Below are positions 4,585 through 63,518 of a stretch of DNA of 64,000 bases, piece by piece. The stretch lies in IMG/VR virus record IMGVR_UViG_3300009073_000002. One strand, 5' to 3'. The translations under genes and the position numbers were made by a program. Numbering within the stretch: position 1 is the stretch's first letter; the number at the start of each line of letters is the position of its first letter. This DNA is from a virus. The notes beneath the pieces were generated by a model, which saw only the letters and a list, made by a program, of their open reading frames with translations, was not told the DNA's origin and made no database searches.

Positions 4585-5625
4585 ATGATTGCAGAAGAAT
4601 TAAAAAGTAATGACCTGACATGGTTGAGAATTTACAATGGTGTCATAGTCCAGACCCTAGCTAAGGGGTATGAGCCGCCACAAGGATTAGCGGAGGATCA
4701 GTACATGTCAAGGAAAATAACCAAAGGGAAGTATCAGGATCAGAATGAGTATTATAAAGAATATAAAACTCTTACTGGTCTAATGAAGCCACCTCAAGTC
4801 AAAAGAGGTCAATTTGGTCTTGAAATAATGGTTTTCCTAGATTCTGGAGGTACAGACGTTTGTTTGACTTTAAGCACGAAGGATAATGCAGGTCAAGCAT
4901 TTATGAGAGCATTTAGGAACATTAGACTTAACGAACAAATTAAGTTTAATGGTCGAAGATATAATCGTAAAAGTGATGGCAAAGAGACTACTGGATTCTG
5001 GATGTATCAGAGAGGGAATGATGGAACATTTGAAGCAGGAAACTCTCAGGTAAATGATTTTCATTTGTGGGATGATTTACCAAAACCAATAAAAAGATAT
5101 GATGCTGATAAAGGTAGAGAAGTAGACGATTATGGACCTGCACAAAAGTTCTTGTTTGATTCATTGGTTGCTACGCTGACACAAGTTTATCCTGGTTGGT
5201 ATTATGATGCTCAAAGTGGTAAAGGAAAGGTTGTTAACACAAATAACAATCAGCAACAGAATTATAATCAGAATCAACAGCAACAGCAGAATCAGCAACA
5301 GAATTATAATCAGCAGAATCAGCAACAGCAGAATCAGCAGCAGAATTATAATCAGCAACAGAATCAGCAGCAGAATTATAATCAGCAGAATCAGCAACAG
5401 AATCAGCAACAGCAGAATCAGCAACAGAATTATAATCAGCAACAGAATCAGCAACAGCAGAATACTCAGCAAAATCAGCAGCATAGTTCGCAGATTAGTC
5501 AAAATCAGCCCCTGATGGGTGATCCTAATAAGCAGCAACAATATCAGCAAAATCCACCACCGCCAAGTCAGGAGCAATATGGTGAGCAGTTTAATCAAGG
5601 AGTACCTGACGACCTTCCATTTTAA
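4585..5625 (+). CDS. SSB-like protein with Q/N-rich low-complexity linker and acidic DDLPF C-terminal tip
   Basis: The C-terminus ...GVPDDLPF resembles the bacterial SSB tip DDDIPF. About 90 aa of N/Q repeats (QQNYNQ) lie before the tip. The gene sits in the replication module. The N-terminal fold is not recognisable by eye. Confidence 0.55.
   Translation: MIAEELKSNDLTWLRIYNGVIVQTLAKGYEPPQGLAEDQYMSRKITKGKYQDQNEYYKEYKTLTGLMKPPQVKRGQFGLEIMVFLDSGGTDVCLTLSTKDNAGQAFMRAFRNIRLNEQIKFNGRRYNRKSDGKETTGFWMYQRGNDGTFEAGNSQVNDFHLWDDLPKPIKRYDADKGREVDDYGPAQKFLFDSLVATLTQVYPGWYYDAQSGKGKVVNTNNNQQQNYNQNQQQQQNQQQNYNQQNQQQQNQQQNYNQQQNQQQNYNQQNQQQNQQQQNQQQNYNQQQNQQQQNTQQNQQHSSQISQNQPLMGDPNKQQQYQQNPPPPSQEQYGEQFNQGVPDDLPF
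5242..5500 (+). repeat. imperfect tandem CAG/CAA/AAT repeat tract encoding the Q/N-rich domain
   Basis: Reiterated cagcaacagaattataatcag units. The ORFs on other frames and on the opposite strand (5161..5598, 5204..5515) are repeat artefacts. Confidence 0.85.
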
Positions 5626-17974: not shown

Positions 17975-18208
17975 ATGGACTCTAAACTAGAAGAAGCAGT
18001 AGATCTCATTTTAGAAATGGGTTACTGCAGTGTATCAGCTATTCAAAGGAATTTAATGCTTGGTTATAATCGAGCATGTGGGATTATTGCTGAAATGGAA
18101 AAGCTAAAAATAGTTGGTCCGGCCAGAGGAACAAGACCTAGGGATGTGCTGATAGTAAGTAAAGACGAATTAGGTGAACTACCCACCCACGCCAGAGGCG
18201 ATGGGTGA
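17975..18208 (+). CDS. FtsK-gamma (winged-helix) domain protein; 3' end runs into the TnpB element
   Basis: LEEAVDLILEMGYCSVSAIQRNLMLGYNRACGIIAEMEKLKIVGPARGTRPRDVLI matches the FtsK gamma domain. The last ~10 codons are antisense to the tnpB 3' end. Confidence 0.8.
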   Translation: MDSKLEEAVDLILEMGYCSVSAIQRNLMLGYNRACGIIAEMEKLKIVGPARGTRPRDVLIVSKDELGELPTHARGDG

Positions 18209-18300
18209 GGCTTCAGGAGTCATCACTCCAACTAACGTCGGCAGTTCGTCCTGATTTTCAGTATCTATCCCAGACACCGTTTTATTTAAAGCAAAAGATT
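18159..18300 (-). ncRNA. predicted TnpB omega/right-end RNA (extent approximate)
   Basis: In known TnpB systems the guide RNA derives from the tnpB 3' end plus the right end of the element. Here a CACCCACGCC-AGA-GGCG-A-TGGGTG hairpin abuts the stop codon. Confidence 0.35.
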
Positions 18301-19440
18301 TAATATTTATGGCAGCATTAACATCACGATCAAGAACAGTAGAGCAACTGTTACAAGTCCACTCTCTATCCGAAAGTTGGAGGTCGTTGTTTATGCTACC
18401 ACAATTTGAGCACGTTTTACTTGAAGGAGCAAATCGACCTATGCGAAGAATATTATTCCCATACCATTCGGCTTTATATTCAAGCATATTCACAAAAGTA
18501 GACCAACTGGCGTCGGTTATCGCTTGTGCTAAGTTGTGGTTCTTAACCATATTTTTTACTGCAAGAGTTTCTAAAGCTATCGTTTGGTTCTCACGAATTA
18601 ACTTAGTCGAAACTTTGTGTAAAAAATCTTTTCTTTTATTTACTACATCTTCATGGAGTTTGGCAAGGCGTAGCCTTGACCTCTTTCCTTTATGTTTTGA
18701 ATACCTACGTTGTGCAAATCTTAATCTAGATTGCGCTTTACGTAAATACGTAGGGTTTTCAAATACTTGGCCATCTGAAGTGATAGCAAAATCTTTAATT
18801 CCAAGATCAATACCTATTGTAGATTCAGATTTTACTTTAGATTTGGCAGGAATCGATTCACCAGTATCGCAGAGGATAGAAGCAAAATACTTACCAGTAG
18901 GAGTTACACTAATAACAGCACTTTTAATTAATCCTTTGGTTGGTCTATGTAGAATTATCTTAATACCTTTCTTTCCAAACTTAGGTATAATCAATCGGTC
19001 TTTTTTTATTTTTAGATACTGCGGTACAGCAAATGATCCTCGATTGGACTTCTTTTTGAATTTAGGAAATCCTTCACCTTTAAAGAACCTTTTAAAAGCA
19101 ATATCCATATTTTGGATTGATTGTCCTAAAGATTGCGAGTTTACTTCTTTTAGAAATTCAAATTCTTTCTTTAAATCTGGGAACTGCTTAATTAAATCGA
19201 ATGCAGATAAATTCACTTTATTTCCTAAGTATGCAGAATTCTTAGTCTCTAAAGCTAGATTATACACTAATCTACAACATCCAATATGTTTATGGATGAG
19301 AACCTTTTGAGATTCAGTAGGATATATTCTGTATTTGAAAGATTTATACATTAAATATTATAACTATAATGTTTTGAGAAAAGTTTCAGTATCTCAAAAT
19401 TATTTTAAATATAAGATTAAAAGGAGTCGTGTAATAAATA
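18170..19440 (-). mobile_element. TnpB-only IS200/IS605-family (IS1341-like) element; ends approximate
   Basis: A TnpB ORF with a GC-rich hairpin at its 3' end (18184..18207) and an imperfect palindrome TTTTGAGA...TCTCAAAA upstream (19371..19398). No tnpA gene is present. Confidence 0.6.
18179..19351 (-). CDS. tnpB: TnpB RNA-guided endonuclease (OrfB_IS605 + zinc ribbon)
   Basis: YRIYPTESQKVLI...CCRLVYN, RuvC-I IGIDLGIKDFAITSDG, E in ALETLAVKNM, CSNCG...CNSC...DRDVNAAINI. Confidence 0.9.
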   Translation of the reverse strand: MYKSFKYRIYPTESQKVLIHKHIGCCRLVYNLALETKNSAYLGNKVNLSAFDLIKQFPDLKKEFEFLKEVNSQSLGQSIQNMDIAFKRFFKGEGFPKFKKKSNRGSFAVPQYLKIKKDRLIIPKFGKKGIKIILHRPTKGLIKSAVISVTPTGKYFASILCDTGESIPAKSKVKSESTIGIDLGIKDFAITSDGQVFENPTYLRKAQSRLRFAQRRYSKHKGKRSRLRLAKLHEDVVNKRKDFLHKVSTKLIRENQTIALETLAVKNMVKNHNLAQAITDASWSTFVNMLEYKAEWYGNNILRIGRFAPSSKTCSNCGSINNDLQLSDREWTCNSCSTVLDRDVNAAINIKSFALNKTVSGIDTENQDELPTLVGVMTPEASPIASGVGG

Positions 19441-19463: not shown

Positions 19464-19875
19464 GGGGGCGAATTGAATCGACTGGAAGCAGTTGGGTGTT
19501 GGTCGTAGCAAGATGGAAACTATCTGTAAAAGTTTCAAACCTTAATTGGAAACGATTATACAAACTCAAGCAAGGATCTCCAGGAGGTTGTTGCAAGTGA
19601 GGCAGATTTCGCGATAGCTGATCTGTTAGAAGGTACTGGCGTTGCCTCTTCATTCGTGAAGGAAAATGCACAGTTGGAGTTAGTCTAACCAAACATCCTG
19701 CATCGGGAGAAATAATAGATGATGGTGGAGCTGCCATTGGCAGCCTTTAGAGGAAAGCTTTATACAAACCTATGCTACTAAAAAGACTGATATTAAACGC
19801 TTAGCAGGACCTCGGGTCGTACCGAGCGCTTCCACGAAGCACTCTTTAGCAAATAGCTAGAGAGTGCCATTATTC
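19464..19875 (+). ncRNA. orphan structured RNA candidate (about 410 nt) with a tmRNA-like 5' end
   Basis: ORF-free and visibly more GC-rich than its surroundings. It has a UUCG-capped hairpin (19647..19662), a 12-bp terminal hairpin (19839..19867) and long-range pairing TGGAAGC (19483) with GCTTCCA (19828). Confidence 0.4.
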
Positions 19876-21526: not shown

Positions 21527-21634
21527 ATGAAACATGAACTGAGTCCTCTTTATGTCAAAGAAAACAAATTAGAAAGGCTAAAAATCAGATTAAAGAAACT
21601 GGAAATAGCGATTATCACTCGTCTCATTGCGTAG
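21527..21634 (+). CDS. small hypothetical protein (35 aa)
   Basis: An internal ATG of track ORF 21443..21634 that avoids overlapping the upstream gene. The 3' end lies inside the hairpin at 21611..21663. Confidence 0.3.
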   Translation: MKHELSPLYVKENKLERLKIRLKKLEIAIITRLIA

Positions 21635-21663
21635 GCTTTGAGATGGGCGATATGAGTGATAAT
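21611..21663 (+). repeat. GC-rich hairpin closed by ATTATCACTC/GAGTGATAAT (10 bp)
   Basis: Perfect 10-bp outer stem. Member of the ATTATC...GATAAT hairpin family. Confidence 0.7.
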
Positions 21664-22039: not shown

Positions 22040-22130
22040 CGTTATGCACTCTATTATCAGTAAGCGAAGGGATTGAGTATAATGGAGTAGCCGATATGTG
22101 GAGTTTATTTTTTTTAATTGAGCAGAGCAA

Positions 22131-22364
22131 ATGACAGACAAATCATTCTTACAAAGCAAATGGAAGCCTTTCGAGATAGTTAGGTTTAAATGCAGTCACT
22201 TCAATAGAGAAATAGAAGCCATCATAGTGGGGATGGATTTTGAAGATAGAACATTCAATATTAGACCACTGGATGTAGAAATGTATGAAGATGAATTAGT
22301 GACAGTAAATATGAGCGAAATAAAACGTGGAGGCATACCAAAGCTGAGGGTGGTAAAAAAATAA
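22131..22364 (+). CDS. hypothetical protein
   Basis: 77-aa ORF. Confidence 0.5.
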   Translation: MTDKSFLQSKWKPFEIVRFKCSHFNREIEAIIVGMDFEDRTFNIRPLDVEMYEDELVTVNMSEIKRGGIPKLRVVKK

Positions 22365-22382
22365 ATTCCATCATATCGGCTT

Positions 22383-22414
22383 ATTATGTGGAGTCCGTAG
22401 GATTACACCATAAT
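22383..22414 (+). repeat. hairpin ATTATG...CATAAT
   Basis: Member of the hairpin family. Followed by ATAATAGAAAATGATAAC. Confidence 0.5.
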
Positions 22415-22483
22415 AGAAAATGATAACGATAGTCGCTATCATCAAATGGAAAACAAATCTTAAACAACAGTAAAATATAAAGA

Positions 22484-22750
22484 ATGAAATACTTAAAATC
22501 AATATCCACAAAAGCGATTATCTGTTATCTATTGTTATCTATAGTATCCTGCTCAAATGTTTGTTTAAACCCCGACTGCCGTTTTGAGCAATTGGAAGCC
22601 CCAATTACATTGACATCTAAAAGCTTCAATACAATAATCCTGACGGACAGCAATGGTAAAATATGGCAATCATCAACGGGCTGGAATATTGCTCAAAACA
22701 TTCTAACAGATGGATATCAAATCGGAGATACAATAGGATATTATAGATAA
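22484..22750 (+). CDS. putative lipoprotein
   Basis: Signal peptide with a lipobox-like LSIVSC. Confidence 0.55.
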   Translation: MKYLKSISTKAIICYLLLSIVSCSNVCLNPDCRFEQLEAPITLTSKSFNTIILTDSNGKIWQSSTGWNIAQNILTDGYQIGDTIGYYR

Positions 22751-22864
22751 TGGGCGTCGCGTATGCGACTGTTTGAATTGCGTCATACGCGTAATTATCC
22801 TCTGCGGTCACGCTGCGACGCCCATTATCCACCACAACAGGTCATCAGACCGTGGTGGATAATG
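22747..22864 (+). repeat. 118-bp double-hairpin palindromic element, copy A (MITE-like)
   Basis: Nearly identical to 23551..23666. A 14-bp stem ATAATGGGCGTCGC/GCGACGCCCATTAT plus a 12-bp stem ATTATCCACCAC/GTGGTGGATAAT. Confidence 0.85.
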
Positions 22865-22959
22865 GAAAATGATATACGATGCGACTGAAAGGAGTAGCGT
22901 TATATCTATAATTATCTGATGGAACGAAGTGAAATGAACTGTTAAAATAAATCAAAATC

Positions 22960-23271
22960 ATGTACAATAAAGACTTAATCGAAGTACGACAAAAAGCAAT
23001 TCTTAACGAAGATACTTCATGTGTACGAAAGTTAGAAAATGTAGGTAGACTTAAAGGAGGTGCTACCATAGGAATCAAGTGGAAAGACTACGATCAGAGT
23101 GACATAGGTTACTTATTCCAAATGCCAGAAATGGAAGATGATGTATATGACTACTATATTCATGTACCACAACCACAGAATCCAATCGGAATGGACACTG
23201 CACCTCCTGTATGGACTCACTTAATAGAATTGCTTTCTAACGAGATGGTTGTTAAAATCACGGTGCTTTGA
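22960..23271 (+). CDS. hypothetical protein
   Basis: 103-aa ORF between the two repeat copies. Confidence 0.55.
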   Translation: MYNKDLIEVRQKAILNEDTSCVRKLENVGRLKGGATIGIKWKDYDQSDIGYLFQMPEMEDDVYDYYIHVPQPQNPIGMDTAPPVWTHLIELLSNEMVVKITVL

Positions 23272-23349
23272 TTTATTTTAATTGCAGATAATGAAAAATG
23301 ATAACTCTCGTCTATCTCGTGTGGGTGGGCGAACTAACTATAAATAAAA

Positions 23350-23490
23350 ATGAAGATTACAATATCGATAATGTATATAATAAGCGGAACACTATTCTTT
23401 CTTGCAGACAATATAGGACTAAGCGTAGCCTGTTGTGGTATGTCAATATGGTATGGATACGAAGCTGAAAGAGGGATGAGAGATATATGA
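23350..23490 (+). CDS. small membrane protein (46 aa)
   Basis: Read manually: MKITISIMYIISGTLFFLADNIGLSVACCGMSIWYGYEAERGMRDI. Confidence 0.35.
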   Translation: MKITISIMYIISGTLFFLADNIGLSVACCGMSIWYGYEAERGMRDI

Positions 23491-23550
23491 GATGTTATCT
23501 ATTATTATACAGAGTCCTATGGGTGGGCTTTGTGTAGTGCTGGATTCTGT

Positions 23551-23666
23551 ATAATGGGCGTCGCGTATGCGACTGTTTGAATTGCGTCATACGCGTAATT
23601 ATCCTCTGCGGTCACGCTGCGACGCCCATTATCCACCACGCGGTCATCAGACCGTGGTGGATAATG
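23551..23666 (+). repeat. 116-bp double-hairpin palindromic element, copy B
   Basis: Differs from copy A only at CAC-GC-GGTC versus CAC-AACA-GGTC. Confidence 0.85.
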
Positions 23667-23734
23667 TAGTTGTGATAAGATGAGTTAAATCCTACCTTGA
23701 GGGTAGGCAAATTAGTAAACAATAAATTAGAAAT

Positions 23735-23932
23735 ATGAAAGTATACAAAGCATTACAATACTCAATATTAAAACTTGGTCCAATACCAATAGAATTTCAA
23801 GAAGAAGCTATTTTTCACACAGCTACAGACTTATTAGAGGTAGAACTTAATTTAGACTTTTCAAGATTTGAGCAACTTATAGACGACGAATGGATATTAT
23901 TAGAGGACTTGAAAAAACGAAGAACTTTATAG
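23735..23932 (+). CDS. hypothetical protein
   Basis: 65-aa ORF. Confidence 0.5.
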   Translation: MKVYKALQYSILKLGPIPIEFQEEAIFHTATDLLEVELNLDFSRFEQLIDDEWILLEDLKKRRTL

Positions 23933-23969
23933 AAGCGTTGGCGTAGGATTTCATTCATTCTTATCACGT

Positions 23970-24025
23970 ATTATCATCTGTCCTTCGTGGGTGGATTTTG
24001 AGACGTGGTAAGGATGGATGATAAT
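23970..24025 (+). repeat. hairpin closed by ATTATCATC/GATGATAAT (9 bp)
   Basis: Member of the hairpin family. Followed by ATAATTACTTGATAAA. Confidence 0.65.
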
Positions 24026-24078
24026 TACTTGATAAACATACCCAATGTAGAACCACCACTGACAACCAATAACTTAAC

Positions 24079-24300
24079 ATGGTTACAAAAGAAATAATAA
24101 GTAAATGGAAGTGCGAATCAATACTGATTACCTCAGATAACCAAGTATATAATCAAAGAGGTGTTAAATTAAAAATGCAGCTCAAAGGATCAAGTAAAGG
24201 GTATTACATTAATAGAAGATTTAGAACGCTTAAATGGATCAAAAATAATTGTATTTTAGCTTCTGTATTAATTAAGCAAGACATCTTATGTCCTTTTTAA
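24079..24300 (+). CDS. hypothetical protein
   Basis: 73-aa ORF. Confidence 0.5.
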   Translation: MVTKEIISKWKCESILITSDNQVYNQRGVKLKMQLKGSSKGYYINRRFRTLKWIKNNCILASVLIKQDILCPF

Positions 24301-24729: not shown

Positions 24730-24758
24730 ATCCCCTCTCCGGGGATATTTTGATTTTT
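24730..24758 (+). terminator. intrinsic terminator
   Basis: ATCCCC-TCTCC-GGGGAT followed by ATTTTGATTTTT. Confidence 0.5.
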
Positions 24759-25700: not shown

Positions 25701-28700
25701 ATGCCTCAGATAGAAGCGAGATTTGATCACATGTACACCGATGGTATTCCCCAAGAGTCACCATCAATGAAGTATAGAAACGCATACGGATGGTCTAAAT
25801 TGCAAGATGCAGTACGTACTGGATACATCTCAACAGAGACTGCAAATAACATCAAAGCAAGCCTACCGTCAGGCTCAGATATTAGAGGATGGTACTACAT
25901 AGAAGAAAGAGATTGGCACATATTTCTCAATCAAGTAGGTGGTACTGATGAAATAGGAGTCTACAAAGAATTAGAATGCAAGTACTATCGAGTTGTTAGA
26001 GATGGTGACCTAGATTGCCCATTAGAATTATCATCTTGTAGATGGTTCCAGATGGCAGTTAATGTCCATGGAAATTGCAATAGAATCAAAATCCATTATT
26101 CAGATAATAAGAATATGTATCGAGTGGTTGATATCACTGATCCATGTTGTGAGCTTAAAGAAGGCTCTCTGAACGATACAAAGCTACTGAAGTGCACTTG
26201 TATACCAACTTTAAAGAAAACAGTACTCAATGGCCATGGACGACTGCCAAATGGATCGTATAGAGCCGCGCTGATGTTGTTTGATGAAGATGGTAATGAT
26301 ACAAACTACTCTATCACTACTCATTCAATGGTTGTCAGTGATAATAGCCATAGAGTAGGTGAAGTAAGTGATTCAGCTATTTTGATAGAAGCATATGGAC
26401 TCCCAGAGGGATATACTTTCGGAAGATTAGTTATTGTCGAGGTAGTAAATGGAGCAGAGAGATATCGAGTGATAGATAGAATCGGTATCGGACAGGGGAG
26501 ATTAAAATTCACGTACACAGGAAACGAGGGGTACTATGAGGAAGGTATAGCTGAAGATATTCGATTAAGAAAGAGAAGATGGTTTAAGGGTGCAGGCATT
26601 CACAATCATAATGGAATTCCTATTTTCTATAACATTGAACCTGAGAGAAATTGGGATCTACAAAGATTAGTCAATACTTTCAAGGTTAGATACTATCGAT
26701 ATGCAGTTCCTGCTAATGAAGCTAAGTATTATGAAGGATTTAGACCAAATGAGATCCTTTCTTTTTCTATTAATTTCAATCTTAAAGGTGGTAGAAAAAC
26801 TAAAGCTTTTATTCTTTCAAATGACAATGTAGTAACTGGTGGTGAAGTTGTTACTACTTGTGATGGATGTAAGATTCCTTTCTGGTTTGCAAATGATACT
26901 TCTAAAAGAATAAATGGATACAGTACAGTAGAAGAAGCTATAGAGGCTCAAGAAAGAAAGAGTCAAGGAGTTAACCAAGATTTTAAAGTTAGTGCCTCTC
27001 CAACAATGAAAATCACTAAGACTGATGGGAAAGCATCATCTAGTGGATATGGTCCTACTATGAATTATTGTGAGTGTTTTGAATGCATTAATACGCTTCA
27101 GAAGTGCTACAAAGAGTTCATGCTTCAAATTATTATCTTCTTAAATTGTATTACTTCTGCTATTAATTTTGTTTTAGATTTTATATCAGGAGATGATGGC
27201 TCAGGTTGGAGCTGCCCAACATTGGCTTTGACTGATGCTACTGACGATTGCTCATGTGACAAAGTATCTAAATGTGCTAGTTTACGTGCTGAAGCAAATG
27301 CTAGAAGTACTGTTGATAGAATAGTTGACGAGACCTACCTTGACAATAATGAAGACATCATTGAGTTTAGAGAAGGCGAAAGAAACAATCCTGCTGCGTC
27401 TGGTGCTGATGAAAGTCAGTTTACTTACCTTAAATCTGAATGGAAATGTGGACCTGACTATAAAGATGGAGACTTCCTAGTCCACAATCAGATTACTTTT
27501 AAATGTATTGGTGGTTATTGGCATTACGTAAATGGTAGCCACATCTTCGAACCACATCCTGCCGTTAATTTTGACAATAAAAATATTCCTTTAGCTCTTA
27601 AAGAAAGAGCTCTTGGCCGTAATGGTAACTCCCATGTCGCAGGAGATGAAAACGATGAAGACTGTATCCCAATCAGAACAAAGCCTATTTACTTTAGTCA
27701 TGGTTGCTTTGGATATGCTGAATCAGAAGAATTGTATCCTGAAACGATCAGTCGATTAGATTGTGAGAAGATGTATGGAGATCTAGCAGGAAAGCCAGTT
27801 CGACACTTCAGAGTGCCATCTAGTACTAAAGAGGTTCATTTTGCTTCTACTGGATCAAATGTAGAAAGTCATCTAAACCCTGCAAATAATGTACTGGATA
27901 ATACATGGGTTATACTAACAGGTCTTAGTGTTGAAGGGATTGAAATTCCAGATGAATTACAACCTTACCTTTGTGAGAATCAACCATTTGATATCAATCA
28001 AGCGCCATTATTAGAAGCTGAAAAAACAGTACTTAATAGTGGAATACTTCATGGAACATTCGAAGGTCCAATATATGGAGAGACGCATTTACATCCTAAA
28101 CATGGAGTTAATAGTCCTGAGTTTTATGATCCTGCAATACAAAGGGCATTCAACAACTCATTCAGGCGAGGATCTGCAAGTACTGTTCCTGCATATATTT
28201 TGCAGTCACCTGATGTTATGCTCTATAGAAATAGAATGGATGCTCACTTCTGGATTACAGAATTGGAAGTTTATGGACAAGGAATCAGGTACGGACATTA
28301 TGCAAATGGATTAGAGCCAGAAAAATCAACTATTCCAAGATTTAATCAGGCAGGAGTAAGGCAAGGAGTCAATCTTAATAAGTCTACAACGGCAGCAATT
28401 GGCGAGACACCTATATTTAGATGTATCAAAGGAATGCAGTTTGTAGAAGCTGATGGTAGTGTTGGTACAACAGGTGAGTTTACATATAGATTTAACAATA
28501 AGTGGAGAGAGTCAGGAATGTATATTGAATTTGAAGGTGATAAAGATGGGTTTAGTGATCCTTTTGCCTTCGAATATGGAAGTACAAATGGAGGAGATGA
28601 TGAAAGTGATACAAGCTTCATTGGTGATGGGATTGATCATTTTGCTTTAATTCCAGATGCTAGAGCTTGGTATGGTTCATCATTGAGATTCTTACCAAGA

Positions 28701-31145
28701 CAATATGGTGCAGTGGCCAACAGAACTTATGTTCCGCTCGGTTTATCTGGTACTAAGTTAGATTATCATCAAAAAACAGGTATTGTAGTTCAAGGGATAG
28801 TTGGTTCTTCTAGTGTTGGTGATTATAGCTATAAGAGAACTTCTGTTTTGTCAGATAAAGTTCATGAAGAGATCAGTACTAATCCTTCATTTGGAATAGT
28901 TGCTAATTTCTTAGATAATCTAGGGATAGAGATACCAGACTTTATGAATCCTTTTATTGAAGCTTTAGATGCGTTCTTCAATAATCTACTTGGGAATATA
29001 GGATTTATAGATTGTGGTACCGTACCACACACAGGAGATGAAAATGATGTAAGGAATAGATTTAACCTAAGACCTGGAATGCGTGGTATTACGGATACTA
29101 CAGGCTATACTGTTACTGCTCCTGCTCAGGGCGAATGGGCTGATGTGTTCTTTCCTAGTGCTCTTTCTACATTCGTTAATATCTTCGTGCCATCAGATGC
29201 TAAGTTAGGATATCGAGGTACTGGAAGTATTCAACTTCGAGAATCAATAGAAGACCCTTCAAGTATAGCTGAAGTATTTTATCGTAAGCTTAAAACCCTA
29301 TTCCTTGACAGTAGCTTCCCTAATGGAGCGAATTGGAGACTATCTTGGATGAATCGATTCTTTAAGAAACTAATCGAACCACCTAGATGGAAAGTTTTAC
29401 TTAGAGTTCTTCTGAATATACTTTGGAAATTCGGCATAGGATTTTATTTAATAATTGAAGGTATTGATCATCTTAGTGAGAATTTAGCCAATACTGTATT
29501 AGGTCCTGGATCTACTTCAGTTACATCGGCTATTGGAATTGCAATAGGTGTATTCTTAATTTTACTCGGTCTTGCTTGGATTATTTTTTGGGCTGGTAAT
29601 GATCTAATGACCAAAGTGTTTGACAGACTCCTTCAGTTAGATGGTTGCTATCCAGATATTGAGAACGGTCAACACGTAACGGCTGCAGGTGGTAGTAAGT
29701 GGCAAATGAAGCTAGGAGAGCACCTCAGAGGACTCGAAGACAACTATTATTACTATAATATTGATTACAATGTAGTTAATTGGTTAGAAGTGATATTTGG
29801 CATACCTGTGAATTACGATACTGAATGGTGTCCAGAAGAATACAGTACTGATATCATTGCAGGACAGATGCAGAATCCAAAGAGTCATATTAATGCTTGG
29901 AGGAATGTAAGAACAGATGAAAATTTTAGTATTCCTAGAACTAGAGGCGCTATTACAAGAATGGTTACTCGAGGGGATAGATTATTTGCTCACACTACAG
30001 ATTCGTTGATTCAAATTAGAATTGATAAGAATGGTAGGTTTATTGATAACACTGATTTATTTGGAGGTGTAGAGACTGGTTATGCAGGGAACAAAGACCC
30101 GAATGCGTCCGCTAATTTGCCTGATGGTTATTGGTGGTGGGATAGAGATGCTAGAAGACCATACCGAATGTCTAATGGTATCCAAGAGCAACCATTCACA
30201 GGAATGGAGGATTACTTTGATTGTAACTGGGGGCTGAACATCTTGGAGCATTGGCCAGACTTCGACAAAGTTGATCAGAAATGTAAATCAGGAGTACACT
30301 ACGATATTGCATTCGATAAAAAGAATGACATACTCTACTTGTATAAGAAAGATTACAAGCTGAAAGAAGGTGTTCATAAAGATAACAATGGTAAGTGGGT
30401 TTATCAGAAACAGAATTGTGATATCAAGAATCTTGATTTCTGGGAAGAAGATAATTTGTTGATCTCATTTGACACTAAGAGAAATGAGCAGCAATACATA
30501 TCAAAGCATTGTTGGGATGCTGAGGTATTTATCTGGAATAGGTTTGATATGATGACAATTAAGAATGATAAGATTGCTAGTCATTGGACCAAAGGTAGAT
30601 TCAATAATTTCCATGGAACTCAGTATCATTCGTATATTGATGTAACAATACCGATTGCTTTAAAGAATAGATCTGTTTCTAAGATTAATTCTGTGAGAAT
30701 AGTTGGTGAATTGATTGAGCACTTACCAGGAGGAATCAAAAGAGAGCTTATCGATGAGAGATTGGTAGAGAGAATCATGCTTTACAATGGATATCAGTCT
30801 ACTGGATGGATGTCTGTGAGGTATAGTGATGAAGAAGACCAGTACAGTACATCAGCTGAGTCTAAGGATGGTGAGTGTGAGATTAAGGTAGAAAATAAGG
30901 TCAATGGATTTAAGATTACTAAAATCAAAAATGCAGTTCCTAAAGGAAGCCCAGTATTTGATCGATATAATCCTGAGATTAAGGATTATGATAACAACTA
31001 CAAGATTACAAGTGTTACAGAATCAGATACATTGACAGATGATTTTGTAGGTGTAAGGATGATTGTAAAGAAGGCTGCAAACAAGCAAGTCATACTTCGG
31101 GCTGCCATGGTTGACTATGATCCCTTAGAGACTGGAGTGGAATAA
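25701..31145 (+). CDS. giant (1814 aa) Cys-rich structural protein with internal TM helices
   Basis: An uninterrupted 5.4-kb ORF. Hydrophobic helices are encoded at about 29390..29600. Function is inferred from size only. Confidence 0.7.
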   Translation: MPQIEARFDHMYTDGIPQESPSMKYRNAYGWSKLQDAVRTGYISTETANNIKASLPSGSDIRGWYYIEERDWHIFLNQVGGTDEIGVYKELECKYYRVVRDGDLDCPLELSSCRWFQMAVNVHGNCNRIKIHYSDNKNMYRVVDITDPCCELKEGSLNDTKLLKCTCIPTLKKTVLNGHGRLPNGSYRAALMLFDEDGNDTNYSITTHSMVVSDNSHRVGEVSDSAILIEAYGLPEGYTFGRLVIVEVVNGAERYRVIDRIGIGQGRLKFTYTGNEGYYEEGIAEDIRLRKRRWFKGAGIHNHNGIPIFYNIEPERNWDLQRLVNTFKVRYYRYAVPANEAKYYEGFRPNEILSFSINFNLKGGRKTKAFILSNDNVVTGGEVVTTCDGCKIPFWFANDTSKRINGYSTVEEAIEAQERKSQGVNQDFKVSASPTMKITKTDGKASSSGYGPTMNYCECFECINTLQKCYKEFMLQIIIFLNCITSAINFVLDFISGDDGSGWSCPTLALTDATDDCSCDKVSKCASLRAEANARSTVDRIVDETYLDNNEDIIEFREGERNNPAASGADESQFTYLKSEWKCGPDYKDGDFLVHNQITFKCIGGYWHYVNGSHIFEPHPAVNFDNKNIPLALKERALGRNGNSHVAGDENDEDCIPIRTKPIYFSHGCFGYAESEELYPETISRLDCEKMYGDLAGKPVRHFRVPSSTKEVHFASTGSNVESHLNPANNVLDNTWVILTGLSVEGIEIPDELQPYLCENQPFDINQAPLLEAEKTVLNSGILHGTFEGPIYGETHLHPKHGVNSPEFYDPAIQRAFNNSFRRGSASTVPAYILQSPDVMLYRNRMDAHFWITELEVYGQGIRYGHYANGLEPEKSTIPRFNQAGVRQGVNLNKSTTAAIGETPIFRCIKGMQFVEADGSVGTTGEFTYRFNNKWRESGMYIEFEGDKDGFSDPFAFEYGSTNGGDDESDTSFIGDGIDHFALIPDARAWYGSSLRFLPRQYGAVANRTYVPLGLSGTKLDYHQKTGIVVQGIVGSSSVGDYSYKRTSVLSDKVHEEISTNPSFGIVANFLDNLGIEIPDFMNPFIEALDAFFNNLLGNIGFIDCGTVPHTGDENDVRNRFNLRPGMRGITDTTGYTVTAPAQGEWADVFFPSALSTFVNIFVPSDAKLGYRGTGSIQLRESIEDPSSIAEVFYRKLKTLFLDSSFPNGANWRLSWMNRFFKKLIEPPRWKVLLRVLLNILWKFGIGFYLIIEGIDHLSENLANTVLGPGSTSVTSAIGIAIGVFLILLGLAWIIFWAGNDLMTKVFDRLLQLDGCYPDIENGQHVTAAGGSKWQMKLGEHLRGLEDNYYYYNIDYNVVNWLEVIFGIPVNYDTEWCPEEYSTDIIAGQMQNPKSHINAWRNVRTDENFSIPRTRGAITRMVTRGDRLFAHTTDSLIQIRIDKNGRFIDNTDLFGGVETGYAGNKDPNASANLPDGYWWWDRDARRPYRMSNGIQEQPFTGMEDYFDCNWGLNILEHWPDFDKVDQKCKSGVHYDIAFDKKNDILYLYKKDYKLKEGVHKDNNGKWVYQKQNCDIKNLDFWEEDNLLISFDTKRNEQQYISKHCWDAEVFIWNRFDMMTIKNDKIASHWTKGRFNNFHGTQYHSYIDVTIPIALKNRSVSKINSVRIVGELIEHLPGGIKRELIDERLVERIMLYNGYQSTGWMSVRYSDEEDQYSTSAESKDGECEIKVENKVNGFKITKIKNAVPKGSPVFDRYNPEIKDYDNNYKITSVTESDTLTDDFVGVRMIVKKAANKQVILRAAMVDYDPLETGVE

Positions 31146-59544: not shown

Positions 59545-59617
59545 AGGGATGTAGCTTAGTGGCCAGAGCGCGTATTTTGGGAATACGAAGGCGAGTGTTC
59601 AAATCACTCCATCCCTA
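59545..59617 (+). tRNA. tRNA-Pro (UGG); CCA encoded at 59618..59620
   Basis: Manual cloverleaf: acceptor AGGGATG/CATCCCT, anticodon loop TTTGGGA, T-arm GAGTG-TTCAAAT-CACTC. Confidence 0.85.
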
Positions 59618-59625
59618 CCAATTAT

Positions 59626-59699
59626 GGTAGCCTTGTGCTGTTTTGCAATGCAGCCGGACTGTGGATCTGGTGCGACGGGTTGGATTCCCGAGGTTTACC
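59626..59699 (+). tRNA. tRNA-His (GUG) with encoded G-1; atypical D and T loops
   Basis: Anticodon arm CCGGA-CTGTGGA-TCTGG. G-1 lies opposite C73. One acceptor mismatch. The D loop lacks GG and the T loop is TTGGATT. Confidence 0.55.
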
Positions 59700-59706
59700 C
59701 AATAAT

Positions 59707-59779
59707 AGCCATGTAGCTCAACTGGCAGAGCGCTTCCCTACGAAGGAAGGGGTTGGGAGTTCGACTCTCTCCATGGTTA
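59707..59779 (+). tRNA. tRNA-Arg (ACG)
   Basis: Acceptor AGCCATG/CATGGTT, anticodon loop CTACGAA, T-arm GGGAG-TTCGACT-CTCTC. Confidence 0.85.
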
Positions 59780-59823
59780 CTAAAATTTTAAAAATCGACG
59801 GCGCTTCGCGCCTAGATACACAT

Positions 59824-59903
59824 GGTCAGGTAGCCACCCTCCTCTTCTAAAGGAGTAAGTGTAATTGGAGCTGAAAATCGGGGTTCGAATCCCTGTCTGA
59901 TCA
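59824..59903 (+). tRNA. atypical tRNA-like gene, anticodon-like loop UCU (Arg)
   Basis: 7-bp acceptor GGTCAGG/TCTGATC and T-arm CGGGG-TTCGAAT-CCCTG. The hairpin CTCCT-CTTCTAA-AGGAG starts only 8 nt after the acceptor strand and is followed by 23 nt. Confidence 0.4.
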
Positions 59904-59928
59904 CTATTAAATAATAAATTTATTATTG

Positions 59929-59936
59929 TATATTTG
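59929..59936 (+). promoter_or_regulatory. -7 box TATATTTG
   Basis: 17 nt upstream of the ATG at 59954. Confidence 0.45.
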
Positions 59937-59953
59937 TAAAAAATATATTAATT

Positions 59954-60220
59954 ATGACAGCATCGGAATTGTTAAATAAAGTACTGACTAAAGTATTTGC
60001 ACTTCAATCTTTATCTGGTAAAATCAGGATAAAGACTGAAGAAAATAAAATGCAAGAACTAAATCTGTTTATTGTCTACTCTAATCATCCTGTTCAGTAT
60101 AACAATAAAATAAGTATTCTGAATTCTGATGATCATGATCTTGAAGAAATTTGGGAACAATTCAAAGAAGATGTTGATACCAATATAAGAGCAATTGATC
60201 ATATCGTTAATATGCCTTAA
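59954..60220 (+). CDS. hypothetical protein
   Basis: 88-aa ORF between tRNA genes. Confidence 0.55.
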   Translation: MTASELLNKVLTKVFALQSLSGKIRIKTEENKMQELNLFIVYSNHPVQYNNKISILNSDDHDLEEIWEQFKEDVDTNIRAIDHIVNMP

Positions 60221-60229
60221 ATTACACAA

Positions 60230-60302
60230 TGATGGTTAGCATAACTGGTTAGTGCATCGGGTTTTGGTCCCGAGGGATGGAGTTCGAGTCTCCGACCGTC
60301 AT
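60230..60302 (+). tRNA. tRNA-Gln (UUG)
   Basis: Acceptor TGATGGT/ACCGTCA, anticodon loop TTTTGGT, T-arm TGGAG-TTCGAGT-CTCCG. Confidence 0.85.
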
Positions 60303-60317
60303 CTAAATTACTGTTTT

Positions 60318-60614
60318 ATGAATGATACAAACATACCTGGTCCTTCCTTTACGGACTTTCTATATGCTGATATACCTACATTTACATCAGGTGAAGGTGT
60401 AGATACTCTTGAATATTTCAAACCTATCATACCAGATCCTGGTCCTAGACAGTTTAATTTATTTGTAGGCACCGAAGGATTCTTTCTTATTAGTGACGGG
60501 TTTAAAGATGAAAGAGATCGATCAGAACGTAAACACTGGCTAGCTCAAAGAATAGCTTACAGGAACCTGATCGATGGTAGAGAATATTACTCACGATTTA
60601 ATAGCCCAGTATGA
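60318..60614 (+). CDS. hypothetical protein
   Basis: ATG at 60318. The longer track ORF (60252) would overlap tRNA-Gln. Confidence 0.55.
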   Translation: MNDTNIPGPSFTDFLYADIPTFTSGEGVDTLEYFKPIIPDPGPRQFNLFVGTEGFFLISDGFKDERDRSERKHWLAQRIAYRNLIDGREYYSRFNSPV

Positions 60615-60784
60615 GAAGATTTATAGGTCAGGAGATAGATGTCGGATCATTCTATACTTTAAGATACAGGTGGGTTTACCTGCCAAATGAGGCCTACATC
60701 GAAGTTCCGCGGCAAATCCGACCATCAGTGCACTCAAACAAACAAAACATCCTCTACAGCGGCCAAAAACTACTTATCCGATGA
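60611..60784 (+). CDS. small hypothetical protein (57 aa)
   Basis: Read manually. ATGA overlap with the upstream stop. Confidence 0.4.
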   Translation: MRRFIGQEIDVGSFYTLRYRWVYLPNEAYIEVPRQIRPSVHSNKQNILYSGQKLLIR

Positions 60785-60906
60785 ATAAATACTACAAACA
60801 AGCTATTATTGAAAGATATCAAAGCCACAATGGATGCTTATCATGCTTTATATTTATTATCTGGATTTTAGTAATGCTTATTGCATTGATACTTTCTTAC
60901 TCATGA
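60781..60906 (+). CDS. small membrane protein (41 aa)
   Basis: Read manually. ATGA overlap. TM segment FIFIIWILVMLIALIL. Confidence 0.35.
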   Translation: MNKYYKQAIIERYQSHNGCLSCFIFIIWILVMLIALILSYS

Positions 60907-61151
60907 AAAAACAAGAAATAAATCCAAGCACCAATAAATAAAAGTACAGGTATAAAACCAAAAATGAAATAACGAAATTTTCTATAGTATATCATTTTCT
61001 TCTCCTTTATTATAAGCTGATCATAATAGTAGTTAATAGCTTTGGGAATAGAACTACTCCAATAACCAAATGATATAGAAGATTCCTCGTAGTGCTCGAG
61101 AGCTCTTTTCCTCAAATCTTCTAGTGGTGTTTGTGCTGCTTGATTATCCAT
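60897..61151 (-). CDS. tail-anchored membrane protein
   Basis: C-terminal TM segment FIFGFIPVLLFIGAWIYFLFF. Confidence 0.55.
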   Translation of the reverse strand: MDNQAAQTPLEDLRKRALEHYEESSISFGYWSSSIPKAINYYYDQLIIKEKKMIYYRKFRYFIFGFIPVLLFIGAWIYFLFFHE

Positions 61152-61590
61152 TGTCTAATTTTATTTTAGCATCTATTTCTAAACCAATTATATCATGCAA
61201 CTCTTTCCTCAGATTCTTAGCTGTCTTTTCTGCTTCCAGTATCCCAGATATCAATTTCTTATGTCTTAATTTAGGATCGTGAATCCTTTTATCTCTAGGC
61301 TTGCTAATTGCAACCGAAGCCAAATCAAAACCTAAATTAGCTATTGCAACATTCAAATCATCTAGATATAAATCTCTAGGAAAACCAAATGCATTTCCAT
61401 CAGTTAATTGCTTGAAAATAATCATTTGAGGAACTGGATTGATTTCATGCTGTTCGCAGATTATTTTAGCCTCTTCTAAGCTTTGCTTGCTGTATCCAAC
61501 ATAAGTGCCTCCAGTCCTAGAAGCACATTTTAAAAGATGTATGGTTTTACCACTTCTTCTTGATTTATATAGTATTTGTACATTATTCAT
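61144..61590 (-). CDS. mini P-loop NTPase, paralog of 38919..39491
   Basis: Walker A KSRRSGKT; Walker B-like LYLDDL. Confidence 0.6.
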   Translation of the reverse strand: MNNVQILYKSRRSGKTIHLLKCASRTGGTYVGYSKQSLEEAKIICEQHEINPVPQMIIFKQLTDGNAFGFPRDLYLDDLNVAIANLGFDLASVAISKPRDKRIHDPKLRHKKLISGILEAEKTAKNLRKELHDIIGLEIDAKIKLDNG

Positions 61591-61771
61591 TTTTTGATTT
61601 TATTTGTTCTTTAAGCCATAAAAAAGCTATTTCTTTTGATTCAAAATCAGAGCTTGCATCTGATACATATACACCAACTCTTTGTTTAGTGCTTTTAGCT
61701 ATAAATGATACATAATGCTCTGTTCCATTATGCTCTACCTCTGTTAATTCTATAAATCTATCTAAAGTCAT
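61583..61771 (-). CDS. hypothetical protein
   Basis: 62-aa ORF. A TATATTTG box ends 4 nt before the ATG, so the mRNA may be leaderless. Confidence 0.5.
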   Translation of the reverse strand: MTLDRFIELTEVEHNGTEHYVSFIAKSTKQRVGVYVSDASSDFESKEIAFLWLKEQIKSKNE

Positions 61772-61801
61772 AAATCAAATATACAAAAAATTTTTATTTA
61801 G

Positions 61802-61876
61802 TACACCAGGTGGGCTACGATCCCACGATCCCTCGATTAAAAGTCGAGTACTTTAGTCCAACTAAGCTACTGGTGC
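61802..61876 (-). tRNA. tRNA-Lys (UUU), unusual T loop
   Basis: Acceptor GCACCAG/CTGGTGT, anticodon loop CTTTTAA, T-arm GTGGG-ATCGTAG-CCCAC. Confidence 0.7.
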
Positions 61877-61881
61877 ATTGG

Positions 61882-61954
61882 AGAACGTAGACGGGCTCGA
61901 ACCGTCGTATCCGGATTTGCAGTCCGGCGCCTATGCCATCTCAGCCATACGTTC
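61882..61954 (-). tRNA. tRNA-Cys (GCA); CCA encoded
   Basis: Acceptor GAACGTA/TACGTTC, anticodon loop CTGCAAA, T-arm GACGG-TTCGAGC-CCGTC. Confidence 0.85.
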
Positions 61955-61959
61955 ATTAG

Positions 61960-62027
61960 CACAGGATGAATGAGTCGAACACTCTCGTAAGGGTTTGGAA
62001 TCCTTTTAGCTCCACAGCCTATCCTGC
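61960..62027 (-). tRNA. tRNA-Trp (CCA), short D arm
   Basis: Acceptor GCAGGAT/ATCCTGT, anticodon loop TTCCAAA, T-arm GAGTG-TTCGACT-CATTC. 68 nt. Confidence 0.65.
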
Positions 62028-62033
62028 ATAAAT

Positions 62034-62113
62034 GATTGATCCTCGGATTCGAACCGACCTCTGCCATTGCCACTCACTTTTCAGCGCGGGAGGAATCGAA
62101 CCTCAAAATCAAT
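62034..62113 (-). tRNA. degenerate/atypical tRNA-like element (no assignable anticodon arm)
   Basis: Acceptor ATTGATT/GATCAAT, a 3' T-arm GTCGG-TTCGAAT-CCGAG, and a second T-arm-like hairpin GAGG-TTCGATT-CCTC where the D arm should be. Confidence 0.3.
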
Positions 62114-62118
62114 CATAG

Positions 62119-62190
62119 CGACAATGGACAGATTCGAACTGCCGTCCTCGGAACTTCACCCCGATGCTAAGCCACCTCAGCTACATTGTC
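62119..62190 (-). tRNA. tRNA-Phe (GAA)
   Basis: Acceptor GACAATG/CATTGTC, anticodon loop GTGAAGT, T-arm GGCAG-TTCGAAT-CTGTC. Confidence 0.85.
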
Positions 62191-62193
62191 AAA

Positions 62194-62230
62194 TAAAAAA
62201 AGCCTCGCAAAATTAATTACGAGGCTTTTT
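62194..62230. terminator. bidirectional terminator hairpin (stronger on the minus strand)
   Basis: A7-AGCCTCG...CGAGGCT-T5. Confidence 0.65.
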
Positions 62231-62316
62231 CATATGATCTAATCACATAGGTTTAGCAATCTCGCAATTCATGCAAAGAGAAACAAAACCATTTTTTTGT
62301 AATTAAAATCATAATG

Positions 62317-62336
62317 CAAATATAGTGTTATATTTG
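62317..62336. promoter_or_regulatory. divergent pair of TATATTTG -7 boxes
   Basis: CAAATATA (minus strand, 62317..62324) and TATATTTG (plus strand, 62329..62336). Confidence 0.45.
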
Positions 62337-62348
62337 TTAAAAAATAAC

Positions 62349-62675
62349 ATGATATCAAAACTTTCTTCAGAAGTAATCGATTTCGTAGCTAAAGTAGAAG
62401 CCAAATATCTTGAATACATGCAGGAGAGATTCCCTAATAATCGTATTGAGGAATTTGAAGTAACTGAAAACAAAAAGTACGTTAAGGTTATTCAATCAGG
62501 TGCCTTCTGCTTTATCAATAGAGAAAATGGGGATATCTATATGGCTAAAACATTTAGTTCTCCATCATTAAAAAATCCTCGAGGTAATTTATTCTCTAAA
62601 CAACTGGGAATGGAAGCGATATCTGAAAGATCTGCAGGAGGTAGAATCCATCCCCATATTAGGTATCTAAGATAA
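62349..62675 (+). CDS. hypothetical protein
   Basis: ATG at 62349, 12 nt after the -7 box. The track start at 62325 lies inside the promoter. Confidence 0.55.
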   Translation: MISKLSSEVIDFVAKVEAKYLEYMQERFPNNRIEEFEVTENKKYVKVIQSGAFCFINRENGDIYMAKTFSSPSLKNPRGNLFSKQLGMEAISERSAGGRIHPHIRYLR

Positions 62676-62679
62676 AAAG

Positions 62680-62750
62680 CGGGCCATCCCGGGCTCGAAC
62701 CGAGGATAACGGAGAGACAGTCCGTCGTATTACCACTATACTAATGGCCC
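62680..62750 (-). tRNA. tRNA-Asp (GUC)
   Basis: Acceptor GGGCCAT/ATGGCCC, anticodon loop CTGTCTC (U at position 37), T-arm CTCGG-TTCGAGC-CCGGG. Confidence 0.8.
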
Positions 62751-62754
62751 ATTG

Positions 62755-62828
62755 AGCCTAAGCAGGGATTCGAACCCCGGACATCTTCATTACAAATGAA
62801 GCGCTCTGACCAGCTGAGCTACTTAGGC
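62755..62828 (-). tRNA. tRNA-Thr (UGU)
   Basis: Acceptor GCCTAAG/CTTAGGC, anticodon loop TTTGTAA, T-arm CGGGG-TTCGAAT-CCCTG. Confidence 0.9.
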
Positions 62829-63265: not shown

Positions 63266-63285
63266 ATAAATTTATTTACTTAATG

Positions 63286-63362: not shown

Positions 63363-63374
63363 AATATAACATTG

Positions 63375-63445: not shown

Positions 63446-63518
63446 AGAGCCGCTTTCATTTATAACGCGCCAACGTCACCTTCTAAAAAGGCAGGTCATT
63501 ACAAGCGGGACCTGTTTG

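Follow-up and report, generated by a model that had tools for sequence, protein, structure and literature searches.

The double-hairpin element and its genomic setting

The sequence analyzed here (hereafter, the window) is a 64,000-nucleotide stretch of IMG/VR record IMGVR_UViG_3300009073_000002, that is, 64 of the ~132 kb of a phage genome, and the subject of the analysis is a double-hairpin element that is present in two copies within a run of small + strand open reading frames (ORFs) at 19.9–24.7 kb, between tnpB and the muzzle gene. The window is AT-rich (about 35% GC). The 1814-aa protein encoded at 25701–31145 is distantly homologous to proteins with the crAss muzzle domain, which makes the host of the element, as far as can be judged from sequence, an uncultured marine crAss-like phage, and a divergent one. 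Contigs from the Joint Genome Institute (JGI, 3300005647), the European Nucleotide Archive (ENA, ERZ27241782) and Logan (SRR5754787) are identical to the window; no near relative of this phage was found among cultured phages or in IMG/VR.

Copy A of the element (22747–22864, + strand) is 118 nt long including the ATAATG at both ends, and copy B (23551–23666, + strand), located directly 3' of a native hairpin denoted h6, is 116 nt long with the same terminal ATAATG; the two score 144.5 and 138.7 bits, respectively, with a covariance model (R1) built from both copies. They differ solely in an internal bulge, which reads AACA in copy A (22836–22839) and GC in copy B (23640–23641). Hairpin 1 (22747–22828 in copy A, 23551–23632 in copy B) consists of a perfect 14-bp outer stem, ATAATGGGCGTCGC/GCGACGCCCATTAT (22747–22760 pairs with 22815–22828), that encloses a 54-nt structured interior. 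Hairpin 2 (22824–22863 and 23628–23665, respectively) consists of a 12-bp stem, ATTATCCACCAC/GTGGTGGATAAT (22824–22835 pairs with 22852–22863), followed by the bulge, a 4-bp stem and a loop. Re-reading of the sequence bore out the coordinates, lengths, bulge difference and ATAATG ends given in the original prediction, along with its two stems, both of them perfect, which share the central ATTAT and compete for it. The 5' ATAAT of copy A holds the TAA stop codon of an 88-aa ORF (22484–22750). The module proper amounts to 111–113 bp plus the ATAAT that is common to the element and its site; its core is 56–58% GC, in a surrounding region of 34% GC.

The copies lie on the same strand, 804 bp apart, and the 686-nt segment between them (22865–23550, + strand) contains, as predicted, two small genes, encoding proteins 103 and 46 aa in length. 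No ORF running across the element is conserved between the copies, as the 2 nt by which they differ in length cause a frameshift.

The predicted fold of the element is far more stable than that of shuffled sequences (z = −5.1 and −4.8 on the + strand and −5.5 on the − strand, with none of the 200 shuffles as good), and includes 6–7 G·U pairs on the + strand vs a single one on the − strand; the one difference between the copies preserves the pairing of hairpin 2. These properties are what would be expected of a functional RNA, be it a small non-coding RNA or a structured leader or terminator of the neighboring genes, that arose by duplication of a regulatory unit, has no mobility of its own, and in which the identity of the copies is kept by selection or reflects recent duplication. 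Apart from the stability (z about −5), the wobble pairs in a number that only the + strand attains, the confinement of change to a bulge and the elevated GC content, there is a precedent in the crAss-like phage phi14:2, in which long intergenic regions give rise to abundant early non-coding RNAs (bioRxiv 10.1101/2020.03.07.982082). Conservation in related phages would be expected in this case but was not seen: model R1 finds no structural homologue in contigs L237–L239 or in phi14:2, and no related repeat was found in the long early non-coding regions of the latter. There is no match to the element in Rfam even at E values up to 10 (only tRNAs in the window reach the gathering score, and 22300–23900 yields two chance-level matches at this permissive cutoff), no covariation can be read from two near-identical copies, and the flanks of the copies are unrelated, such that simple duplication does not apply. 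Taken together, we consider an immobile RNA of this kind an unlikely explanation.

Within the interior of hairpin 1 (22756–22769 and 23560–23573), there is an alternative stem-loop, GTCGC-GTAT-GCGAC followed by TGTTTGAATT, that competes with the long stem and was flagged as terminator-like by a simple scan.

A family of native hairpins between small genes

The element is embedded in a series of hairpins with ATTAT and ATAAT feet, 7 of the 10 such hairpins in the 64 kb being located within 21.6–24.0 kb. Three of these, all on the + strand, are of special relevance, namely, h1 (21611–21663) and h7 (23970–24025), which are empty sites, and h6 (23504–23555; ATTATACAGAGTCC...GGATTCTGTATAAT), whose 3' ATAAT is the first ATAAT of copy B. 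A degenerate cassette unit, ATTATCAGTAAGCGAAG...TATAAT, is present at 22054–22084 (+ strand), its first 17 nt being identical to positions 1774–1790 of contig L248. Outside the window, members of the family were identified in L237 (15615–15666, − strand; located after a small gene), L248 (1365–1416 and 2195–2248), L249 (7329–7380) and L256 (3443–3498), all except the first through two pattern scans of IMG/VR, with the matches checked using a second covariance model, R2. The family thus extends over several marine phage contigs and is defined by a length of 52–56 nt, the ATTAT/ATAAT feet and the loop motif GGGTGG-(N)-TTTG; among cultured phages, none was found to contain the native hairpin blocks, and the family has no match in Rfam.

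Across eight members from five contigs, 96.7% of the stem positions are paired, and 8 of the 15 pairs show compensatory double changes; none of 500 shuffles reaches the observed covariation score, and slid registers drop to 27–53% paired. Pair 11 is G·U in all eight members. The native hairpins are predicted to fold at −19 to −21 kcal/mol on the + strand vs −12 to −15 kcal/mol on the − strand, with all wobble pairs on the + strand. Such a hairpin appears to have been selected on the sense strand and so would act in the transcript; the pattern suggests that the hairpin functions in the sense transcript or, perhaps, in one strand of the DNA. The hairpins are found 8–60 nt 3' of stop codons, between small ORFs; a canonical terminator is located elsewhere, at 24730–24746. 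The 3' feet resemble a −10 box ([G/T]ATAAT), and the loops carry TTGAGA or TTTG at a spacing of 14–16 nt. Most likely, then, the native hairpin is a 3'-end, terminator or processing hairpin that possibly overlaps the −10-like box of the next gene, and the family can be considered a candidate new RNA (or single-strand DNA) motif. A genome-wide sigma-70-like promoter composed of the loop TTGAGA and the foot ATAAT was also considered and rejected for lack of enrichment.

The leaders that follow the hairpins form conserved families as well, for example, TCTC..GGGTGGGCGA..TAA before the ATG, which is found at 23315–23334 of the window and at 1828–1856 of L248. The spacers seem to be built from several reusable blocks.

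Element boundaries and empty sites

The 60-nt flanks of copies A and B match at 16 and 10 of the 60 positions, which is the chance level, and the ORFs that follow the two copies are unrelated. A third context for the element is provided by contig L069 (Ga0114957_1100392), in which window positions 22766–22863 (100% identity) are joined at GATAAT to window positions 24026–24081 (100% identity). The latter is a 56-nt block located 3' of h7 on the + strand that comprises the leader of a 73-aa gene through its ATG; beyond this leader, L069 encompasses unrelated genes including a lipoprotein-like ORF. These observations bear on the possibility of a simple segmental (tandem) duplication of about 800 bp, with flanks that have since diverged, a scenario compatible with two direct copies 804 bp apart on the same strand of the same gene cluster. 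Identical copies with immediate surroundings at chance similarity, unrelated downstream ORFs and a joint to a third, different sequence in L069 agree with the original prediction of a sharply bounded insertion and make such a duplication extremely improbable; the flank comparison was by itself sufficient for us to reject it.

As read from its sequence, the mosaic L069 shows very recent module exchange in the phage population. The contig begins inside the element and includes exactly the last 98 nt of it up to the ATAAT, and this start looks like a repeat-induced assembly break. Assembly contigs also break at 22724 and 24081: an ENA contig, L058, spans 22724–24081, and its last 141 nt are shared with the start of another contig, L240, which suggests that variants branch at the very ATG where L069 diverges. 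Neither the downstream sequence of the L069 type nor the h7 leader had a match in scans of IMG/VR. In L069, the nucleotide after ATAAT is T, and therefore the repeat common to the three right junctions is the pentanucleotide ATAAT; the repeat originally given as ATAATG is reduced to these 5 nt.

When the element is excised in silico, site A aligns across the junction with the spacer at 22385–22450 (46 of 73 positions) and site B with the h7 unit (62 of 103 positions). The paralogue of site A without an insertion (22385–22427, + strand) consists of a weak hairpin and then CATAAT followed directly by AGAAAATGATAAC, and another empty site (23282–23305, + strand) carries the motif GATAAT followed by GAAAAATGATAAC. 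The common motif, ATAAT-G/A-AAAATGATA, recurs without the element at 22410, as predicted, and at 23288, rather than 23290 as initially assigned. A counterpart of site B is also available from a different phage: h6 and L249:7328–7380 are 96% identical over 53 nt that end at ATAAT, after which L249 continues with AGTTGGAG... and contains no element. Hence the search for empty sites suggested with the original prediction yields them both within the window and outside it. At the empty sites, that is, in the paralogues and in L249, ATAAT is single, and at the filled sites, it is double. The right ATAAT doubles as the 3' arm of hairpin 2, and the left one as the native hairpin's foot, so the repeat may be built in rather than target-duplicated. 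All three junctions fit insertion 3' of ATAAT and fit duplication or recombination equally well. There are 364 occurrences of ATAAT on the two strands of the window, and all insertions are at cassette feet, which means that the pentamer alone does not explain the choice of site. The element is, then, an insertion/deletion difference between members of one cassette family that is always located right after ATAAT.

The single ATAAT of empty sites and the double one of filled sites would also be expected of non-autonomous transposons, of which two kinds come into consideration: a miniature inverted-repeat transposable element (MITE) with a 5-bp ATAAT duplication, or a palindrome-associated transposable element (PATE) of the IS200/IS605 type, inserted 3' of ATAAT through single-stranded DNA, with the transposase in either case encoded elsewhere, in the remaining half of the phage genome or in the host. 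Consistent with this possibility, the element has sharp bounds in three contexts, hairpins at both ends, and a terminus in the pentanucleotide of the target, and a tnpB gene is present in the window (18179–19351), with a homologous tnpB at a different place in L237. IS200/IS605-like elements can end in the same pentanucleotide as their target. Among the prokaryotic elements defined as MITEs, with terminal inverted repeats as the main structural criterion (PMC11602168), one would also find small, non-coding, intergenic, hairpin-folding sequences with short direct repeats that are single at empty sites, as is the case here. However, the two ends of the element show no inverted repeat between them, let alone one of at least 10–15 bp as is typical of MITEs: the left end, ATAATGGGCGTCGC, does not match the reverse complement of the right end, CATTATCCACCACG, and the partner of the left end in the 14-bp inverted repeat is the center (22815–22828) instead of the right end. 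There is, moreover, no parent transposon or transposase in evidence and no dispersed family, with two copies 804 bp apart in the window, none in 185,579 genomes or IMG/VR, and all sites in a single paralogous cassette family in spite of the 364 available ATAAT. The designation of the element as a MITE in the strict sense is not supported.

A relationship with PATEs and IS605 would require similar hairpins at both ends, IS-related ends and a TnpA. The element resembles PATEs, as well as repetitive extragenic palindromic (REP) sequences, bacterial interspersed mosaic elements (BIMEs) and REPINs (paired REP sequences forming a hairpin), in that each end has a hairpin at or close to it, the junctions are compatible with insertion 3' of a fixed pentanucleotide, and a tnpB is nearby; furthermore, h6, hairpin 1 and hairpin 2 form a chain of alternating polarity, as in BIMEs. 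Unlike in these elements, the left and right hairpins are unrelated (the stem of hairpin 1, GGGCGTCGC, and that of hairpin 2, CCACCAC, have only the ATAAT/ATTAT feet in common), the copy number is tiny, there is no likeness to the sequences flanking tnpB, and neither a Y1 transposase nor a REP-associated tyrosine transposase (RAYT) was found in the scanned ORFs of the window. The Pfam scan, which covered the ORFs of 70 aa or more except for some of 70–130 aa in 53–62 kb, detected no Y1 (PF01797-type) or other transposase, integrase, reverse transcriptase, or tyrosine or serine recombinase, so that TnpB stands, as stated originally, as the sole transposition-related protein among those scanned; the PATE-like label is not supported either. 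Given that ATAAT is the 3' foot of a conserved cassette family, a feature that had been missed earlier, recombination between cassettes is at least as likely as transposition; on the whole, the transposon is the weaker rival of the two, and we regard it as doubtful.

Short-word blastn of the element against the window yielded only chance matches of 9–11 nt near tnpB (18179–19351). The resemblance of hairpin 2 to a hairpin at the tnpB 3' end that had been noted before does not hold up, and the link to tnpB was rejected, the best word in common with the whole tnpB region being a chance-level 11-mer inside the coding sequence. Words similar to GTGGGTGGG number 6 against 2.4 expected, which is reached in 4 of 100 shuffles; these occur in the loops of native hairpins and not in the element. 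TnpB itself (IS605 OrfB type, 390 aa, 18179–19351, − strand) has no adjacent TnpA, and the 3' end of its gene overlaps the end of a + strand ORF encoding an FtsK-gamma protein. The tnpB of L237 (8354–9532) is located just upstream of the muzzle gene, with about 63–70% amino acid identity over the segments aligned by tblastx. The JGI assembly breaks about 200 nt upstream of tnpB (19546–19570). Readings as a diversity-generating retroelement (DGR), a retron, attC sites proper or clustered regularly interspaced short palindromic repeats (CRISPR) were dropped as well, in view of the lack of a detectable reverse transcriptase or integrase in the scanned ORFs and of an unfitting repeat geometry.

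Homology breakpoints in other phages

Two more pairs of sequences repeat the pattern seen between h6 and L249. The block 23950–24025, which includes h7, is 96% identical to L256:3423–3498 over 76 nt, and L237 and L248 share 86 nt at 95% identity; in both cases, the similarity ends at ATAAT. In all three pairs (window/L249, window/L256 and L237/L248), the neighboring sequence is unrelated.

A recurrent junction at the foot of a covarying hairpin is reminiscent of integrons, in which attC sites are defined by structure and carry fixed extrahelical bases. Conceivably, the hairpins could be sites at which a hairpin-directed, site-specific system exchanges gene cassettes on folded single strands, with the crossover just after ATAAT and the double hairpin as a cassette without an ORF. 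The likeness to attC encompasses structure-defined hairpins with conserved feet and covarying stems, a fixed mispair (G·T in DNA) in 8 of the 8 members, the position of the hairpins after small ORFs with which they alternate, and module junctions at the 3' foot, with homology ending exactly at ATAAT in three phage pairs and the L069 joint at the same point. Nevertheless, the feet ATTAT/ATAAT do not match the core sites RYYYAAC/GTTRRRY, and there is no integrase or attI among the features found in the window, nor a tyrosine or serine recombinase in the scanned ORFs. The G·U pairs of the sense strand fit a role in RNA at least as well, the end of homology at the edge of a conserved block is to be expected without any site-specific crossover, and hairpin blocks are exchanged at the left edge as well, with no common motif apparent there. 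An attC-like system in this sense is very unlikely.

A broader version of this idea, in which the hairpins would be single-strand sites of hairpin-directed cassette exchange in marine crAss-like phages, with the crossover just after ATAAT, strikes us as a long shot. If it were true, the exchange system would be a phage analogue of integron attC or IS200-type chemistry, so far with no recognizable recombinase, and the double hairpin would represent either a cassette that lacks an ORF or a parasite of the system.

Searches for additional copies

Searches of the window (up to 3 mismatches, short-word blastn and nhmmer) detected no copies beyond A and B; of an 18-mer and a 21-mer taken from the element, exactly two occurrences each were recorded with a tolerance of 3 mismatches, against an expectation of 0. 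The public scans, all of them exact-word scans, covered IMG/VR, 241 million metagenome records and 185,579 genomes (one per species). Scanning with a 17-mer returned 107 metagenome loci and 64 genome loci, among which the single true match was L069; the 21-mer of the element had no match in IMG/VR, and a scan of the same database for the outer stem gave 56 matches, all by chance, in GC-rich phages. There was no match to the element in a blastn search of INPHARED, and the peptide encoded across the element matched itself only in a protein database search. The wider search proposed with the original prediction has therefore added one partial copy, L069, and none from IMG/VR, the 185,579 genomes or INPHARED. 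Contigs L237–L239, which encode relatives of the muzzle protein, are too distant and do not contain the element. A synteny search based on the PAPS-reductase-like gene led to homologues in unrelated temperate phages. Each of the 12 contigs that were looked up proved to be either window-identical DNA or a distant relative, and none extended the sequence of this phage past the window.

Some parts of the element have counterparts in the surrounding cassettes. Its 5' part (ATAATGG-GCGTCGCGT-ATGCGACTG) resembles the native sequence that follows the hairpins: the 9-mer ATGCGACTG recurs 15 nt 3' of copy A, and in L248, ATAATGGACTGCGTATAAAATGAGTGCGAC comes after the first hairpin. Likewise, there is a resemblance between AGACCGTGGTGGATAAT, which forms the 3' arm of hairpin 2, and AGACGTGGTAAGGATGGATGATAAT in the 3' part of h7. 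This is suggestive only, but the element was possibly assembled locally from cassette parts, which would fit its absence from public data.

A further similarity involves the lipoprotein-like 88-aa ORF upstream of copy A, in which the part encoding the signal peptide (22523–22550) resembles the region of the h6 5' arm (23493–23515; 83% over 23 nt). The same part is also complementary to 22735–22750, just 5' of copy A and 184 nt away. The resemblance may be due to chance in AT-rich DNA or may be the trace of a cassette hairpin split by an ORF.

A candidate module shuffled at the foot of intergenic cassettes

The explanation that we tentatively favor, while giving it somewhat less than an even chance, is that the element is an ORF-less structured module that is copied or shuffled at the ATAAT foot of terminator/promoter-like cassettes, and that has been copied into an identical junction of at least two, and probably three, members of the cassette family. 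Under this scenario, cassettes with a core hairpin of 52–56 nt would separate the small + strand genes, and modules would be joined just 3' of ATAAT. The mode of copying that we infer is recombination or strand switching within the short foot that is shared, with hairpin formation as an aid; by this route, the double hairpin would spread and be reshuffled, and we do not consider TnpA/TnpB of the IS605 type or a transposase that recognizes terminal inverted repeats likely to move it. Once inserted, the element would be transcribed as part of the intercistronic RNA and add two very stable stems to it. The ATAAT(G) direct repeats would make it prone to precise loss, and it is reasonable to suppose that recombination between the direct copies could delete the intervening 686 bp; no variant with this deletion was detected, in assemblies that could scarcely have revealed it.

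Several observations weigh against this explanation. The ends of the element and the target cassettes are identical over just 5–7 bases, with degenerate similarity in addition, and ordinary homologous gene conversion does not easily account for three identical boundaries. The presence of ATAAT once in empty and twice in filled sites is also exactly what a 5-bp target duplication, or an IS200/IS605-type insertion 3' of a pentanucleotide, would be expected to leave. L069 starts inside the element, without the left flank, and could stem from an insertion at h7 or from a deletion between copy A and h7. As to the terminator/promoter-like nature of the cassettes, the native hairpins have no U tract, the TTGAGA-N13-18-[G/T]ATAAT motif is not enriched across the window (6 found vs 8.6 expected), and either role is a candidate only. 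Finally, the analysis rests on 64 of the ~132 kb of the genome.

The different scenarios make distinct predictions for the sequences of alleles. Empty alleles would read TATAGATAAT joined directly to GGAAAATG, or CTGTATAAT joined to GTAGTTG, and the product of a deletion between copies A and B would read ...AACAGGTCATCAGACCGTGGTGGATAATG joined to TAGTTG. A left flank of L069 in the form of GGATGGATGATAAT followed by GGGCG would imply insertion at h7, and TATAGATAAT followed by GGGCG, deletion or recombination from copy A.

The closest parallel to a module shuffled in this manner appears to be the promoter-early stem-loop (PeSL) cassettes of T4-type phages, which are a precedent for exchange at intergenic cassettes (Arbiol et al. 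2010, PMC2839356; Comeau et al. 2014, PMC4122927). In both cases, the intergenic cassettes are short, structured and conserved, flank small ORFs that are not essential within a variable region, and recur in phages whose neighboring genes differ; exchange takes place at the cassette, and the genes located between two direct copies can be looped out. In the window and its relatives, this correspondence comprises a conserved stem-loop in repeated intergenic cassettes between small ORFs (h1, h6 and h7, plus five elsewhere) and exchange at these cassettes (the L069 joint, the stops of homology in three pairs, and the contig breaks at 22724 and 24081). The differences are that the phage is crAss-like and not T4-like, that the promoter is a candidate only, that the exchange point is a 5–6-nt foot rather than a longer promoter region, that neither mini-circles nor deletion variants were seen in the present data, and that the additional 111–113-bp GC-rich double hairpin has no described counterpart among PeSLs.

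The element itself can also be compared with the GC clusters and double-hairpin elements of fungal mitochondria (PMC4478555; Paquin et al. 2000, as cited therein), which are GC-rich, palindromic or double-hairpin sequences located between genes of AT-rich genomes, with short target repeats and no known enzyme, and which form by the merging of hairpin units. Unlike the present element, these are much shorter (42 nt in the case of GC42) and reach tens to hundreds of copies; the type of genome is unrelated, and there is no sequence relation.

crAss-like phages are abundant, and the gain and loss of small genes in their variable regions are poorly understood. The locus provides a testable handle on this process in the form of a hairpin family with a recurrent 3' junction along with a young ORF-less module in two or three sites. 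Should the junctions result from a directed process, they would represent a new route of gene shuffling in crAss-like phages; otherwise, the PeSL idea of regulatory cassettes as recombination points would be extended from the T4-type phages to a very different lineage. In either case, a new candidate RNA motif with covariation support is added.

Other genes in the window

Other Pfam matches among the ORFs of the window include the FtsK-gamma protein, an HNH endonuclease and various enzymes. Several of the encoded proteins are unusual for a phage (11859–13460, 39491–41014, 41005–41712, 49184–50677 and 43262–44761), namely, a Cpn60/GroEL-like chaperonin, a protein kinase beside a PP2C-like phosphatase, a DNA polymerase III beta clamp and a C5 cytosine methylase. 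A 346-aa ORF (4585–5625) contains a long Q/N-rich repeat (QQNYNQQ units) in its C-terminal half. Thirteen tRNA genes are clustered at 59545–63984, interspersed with small ORFs including one for an HNH endonuclease (62819–63265), and a part of this cluster (63693–63956) shows 75–78% DNA similarity to L256.

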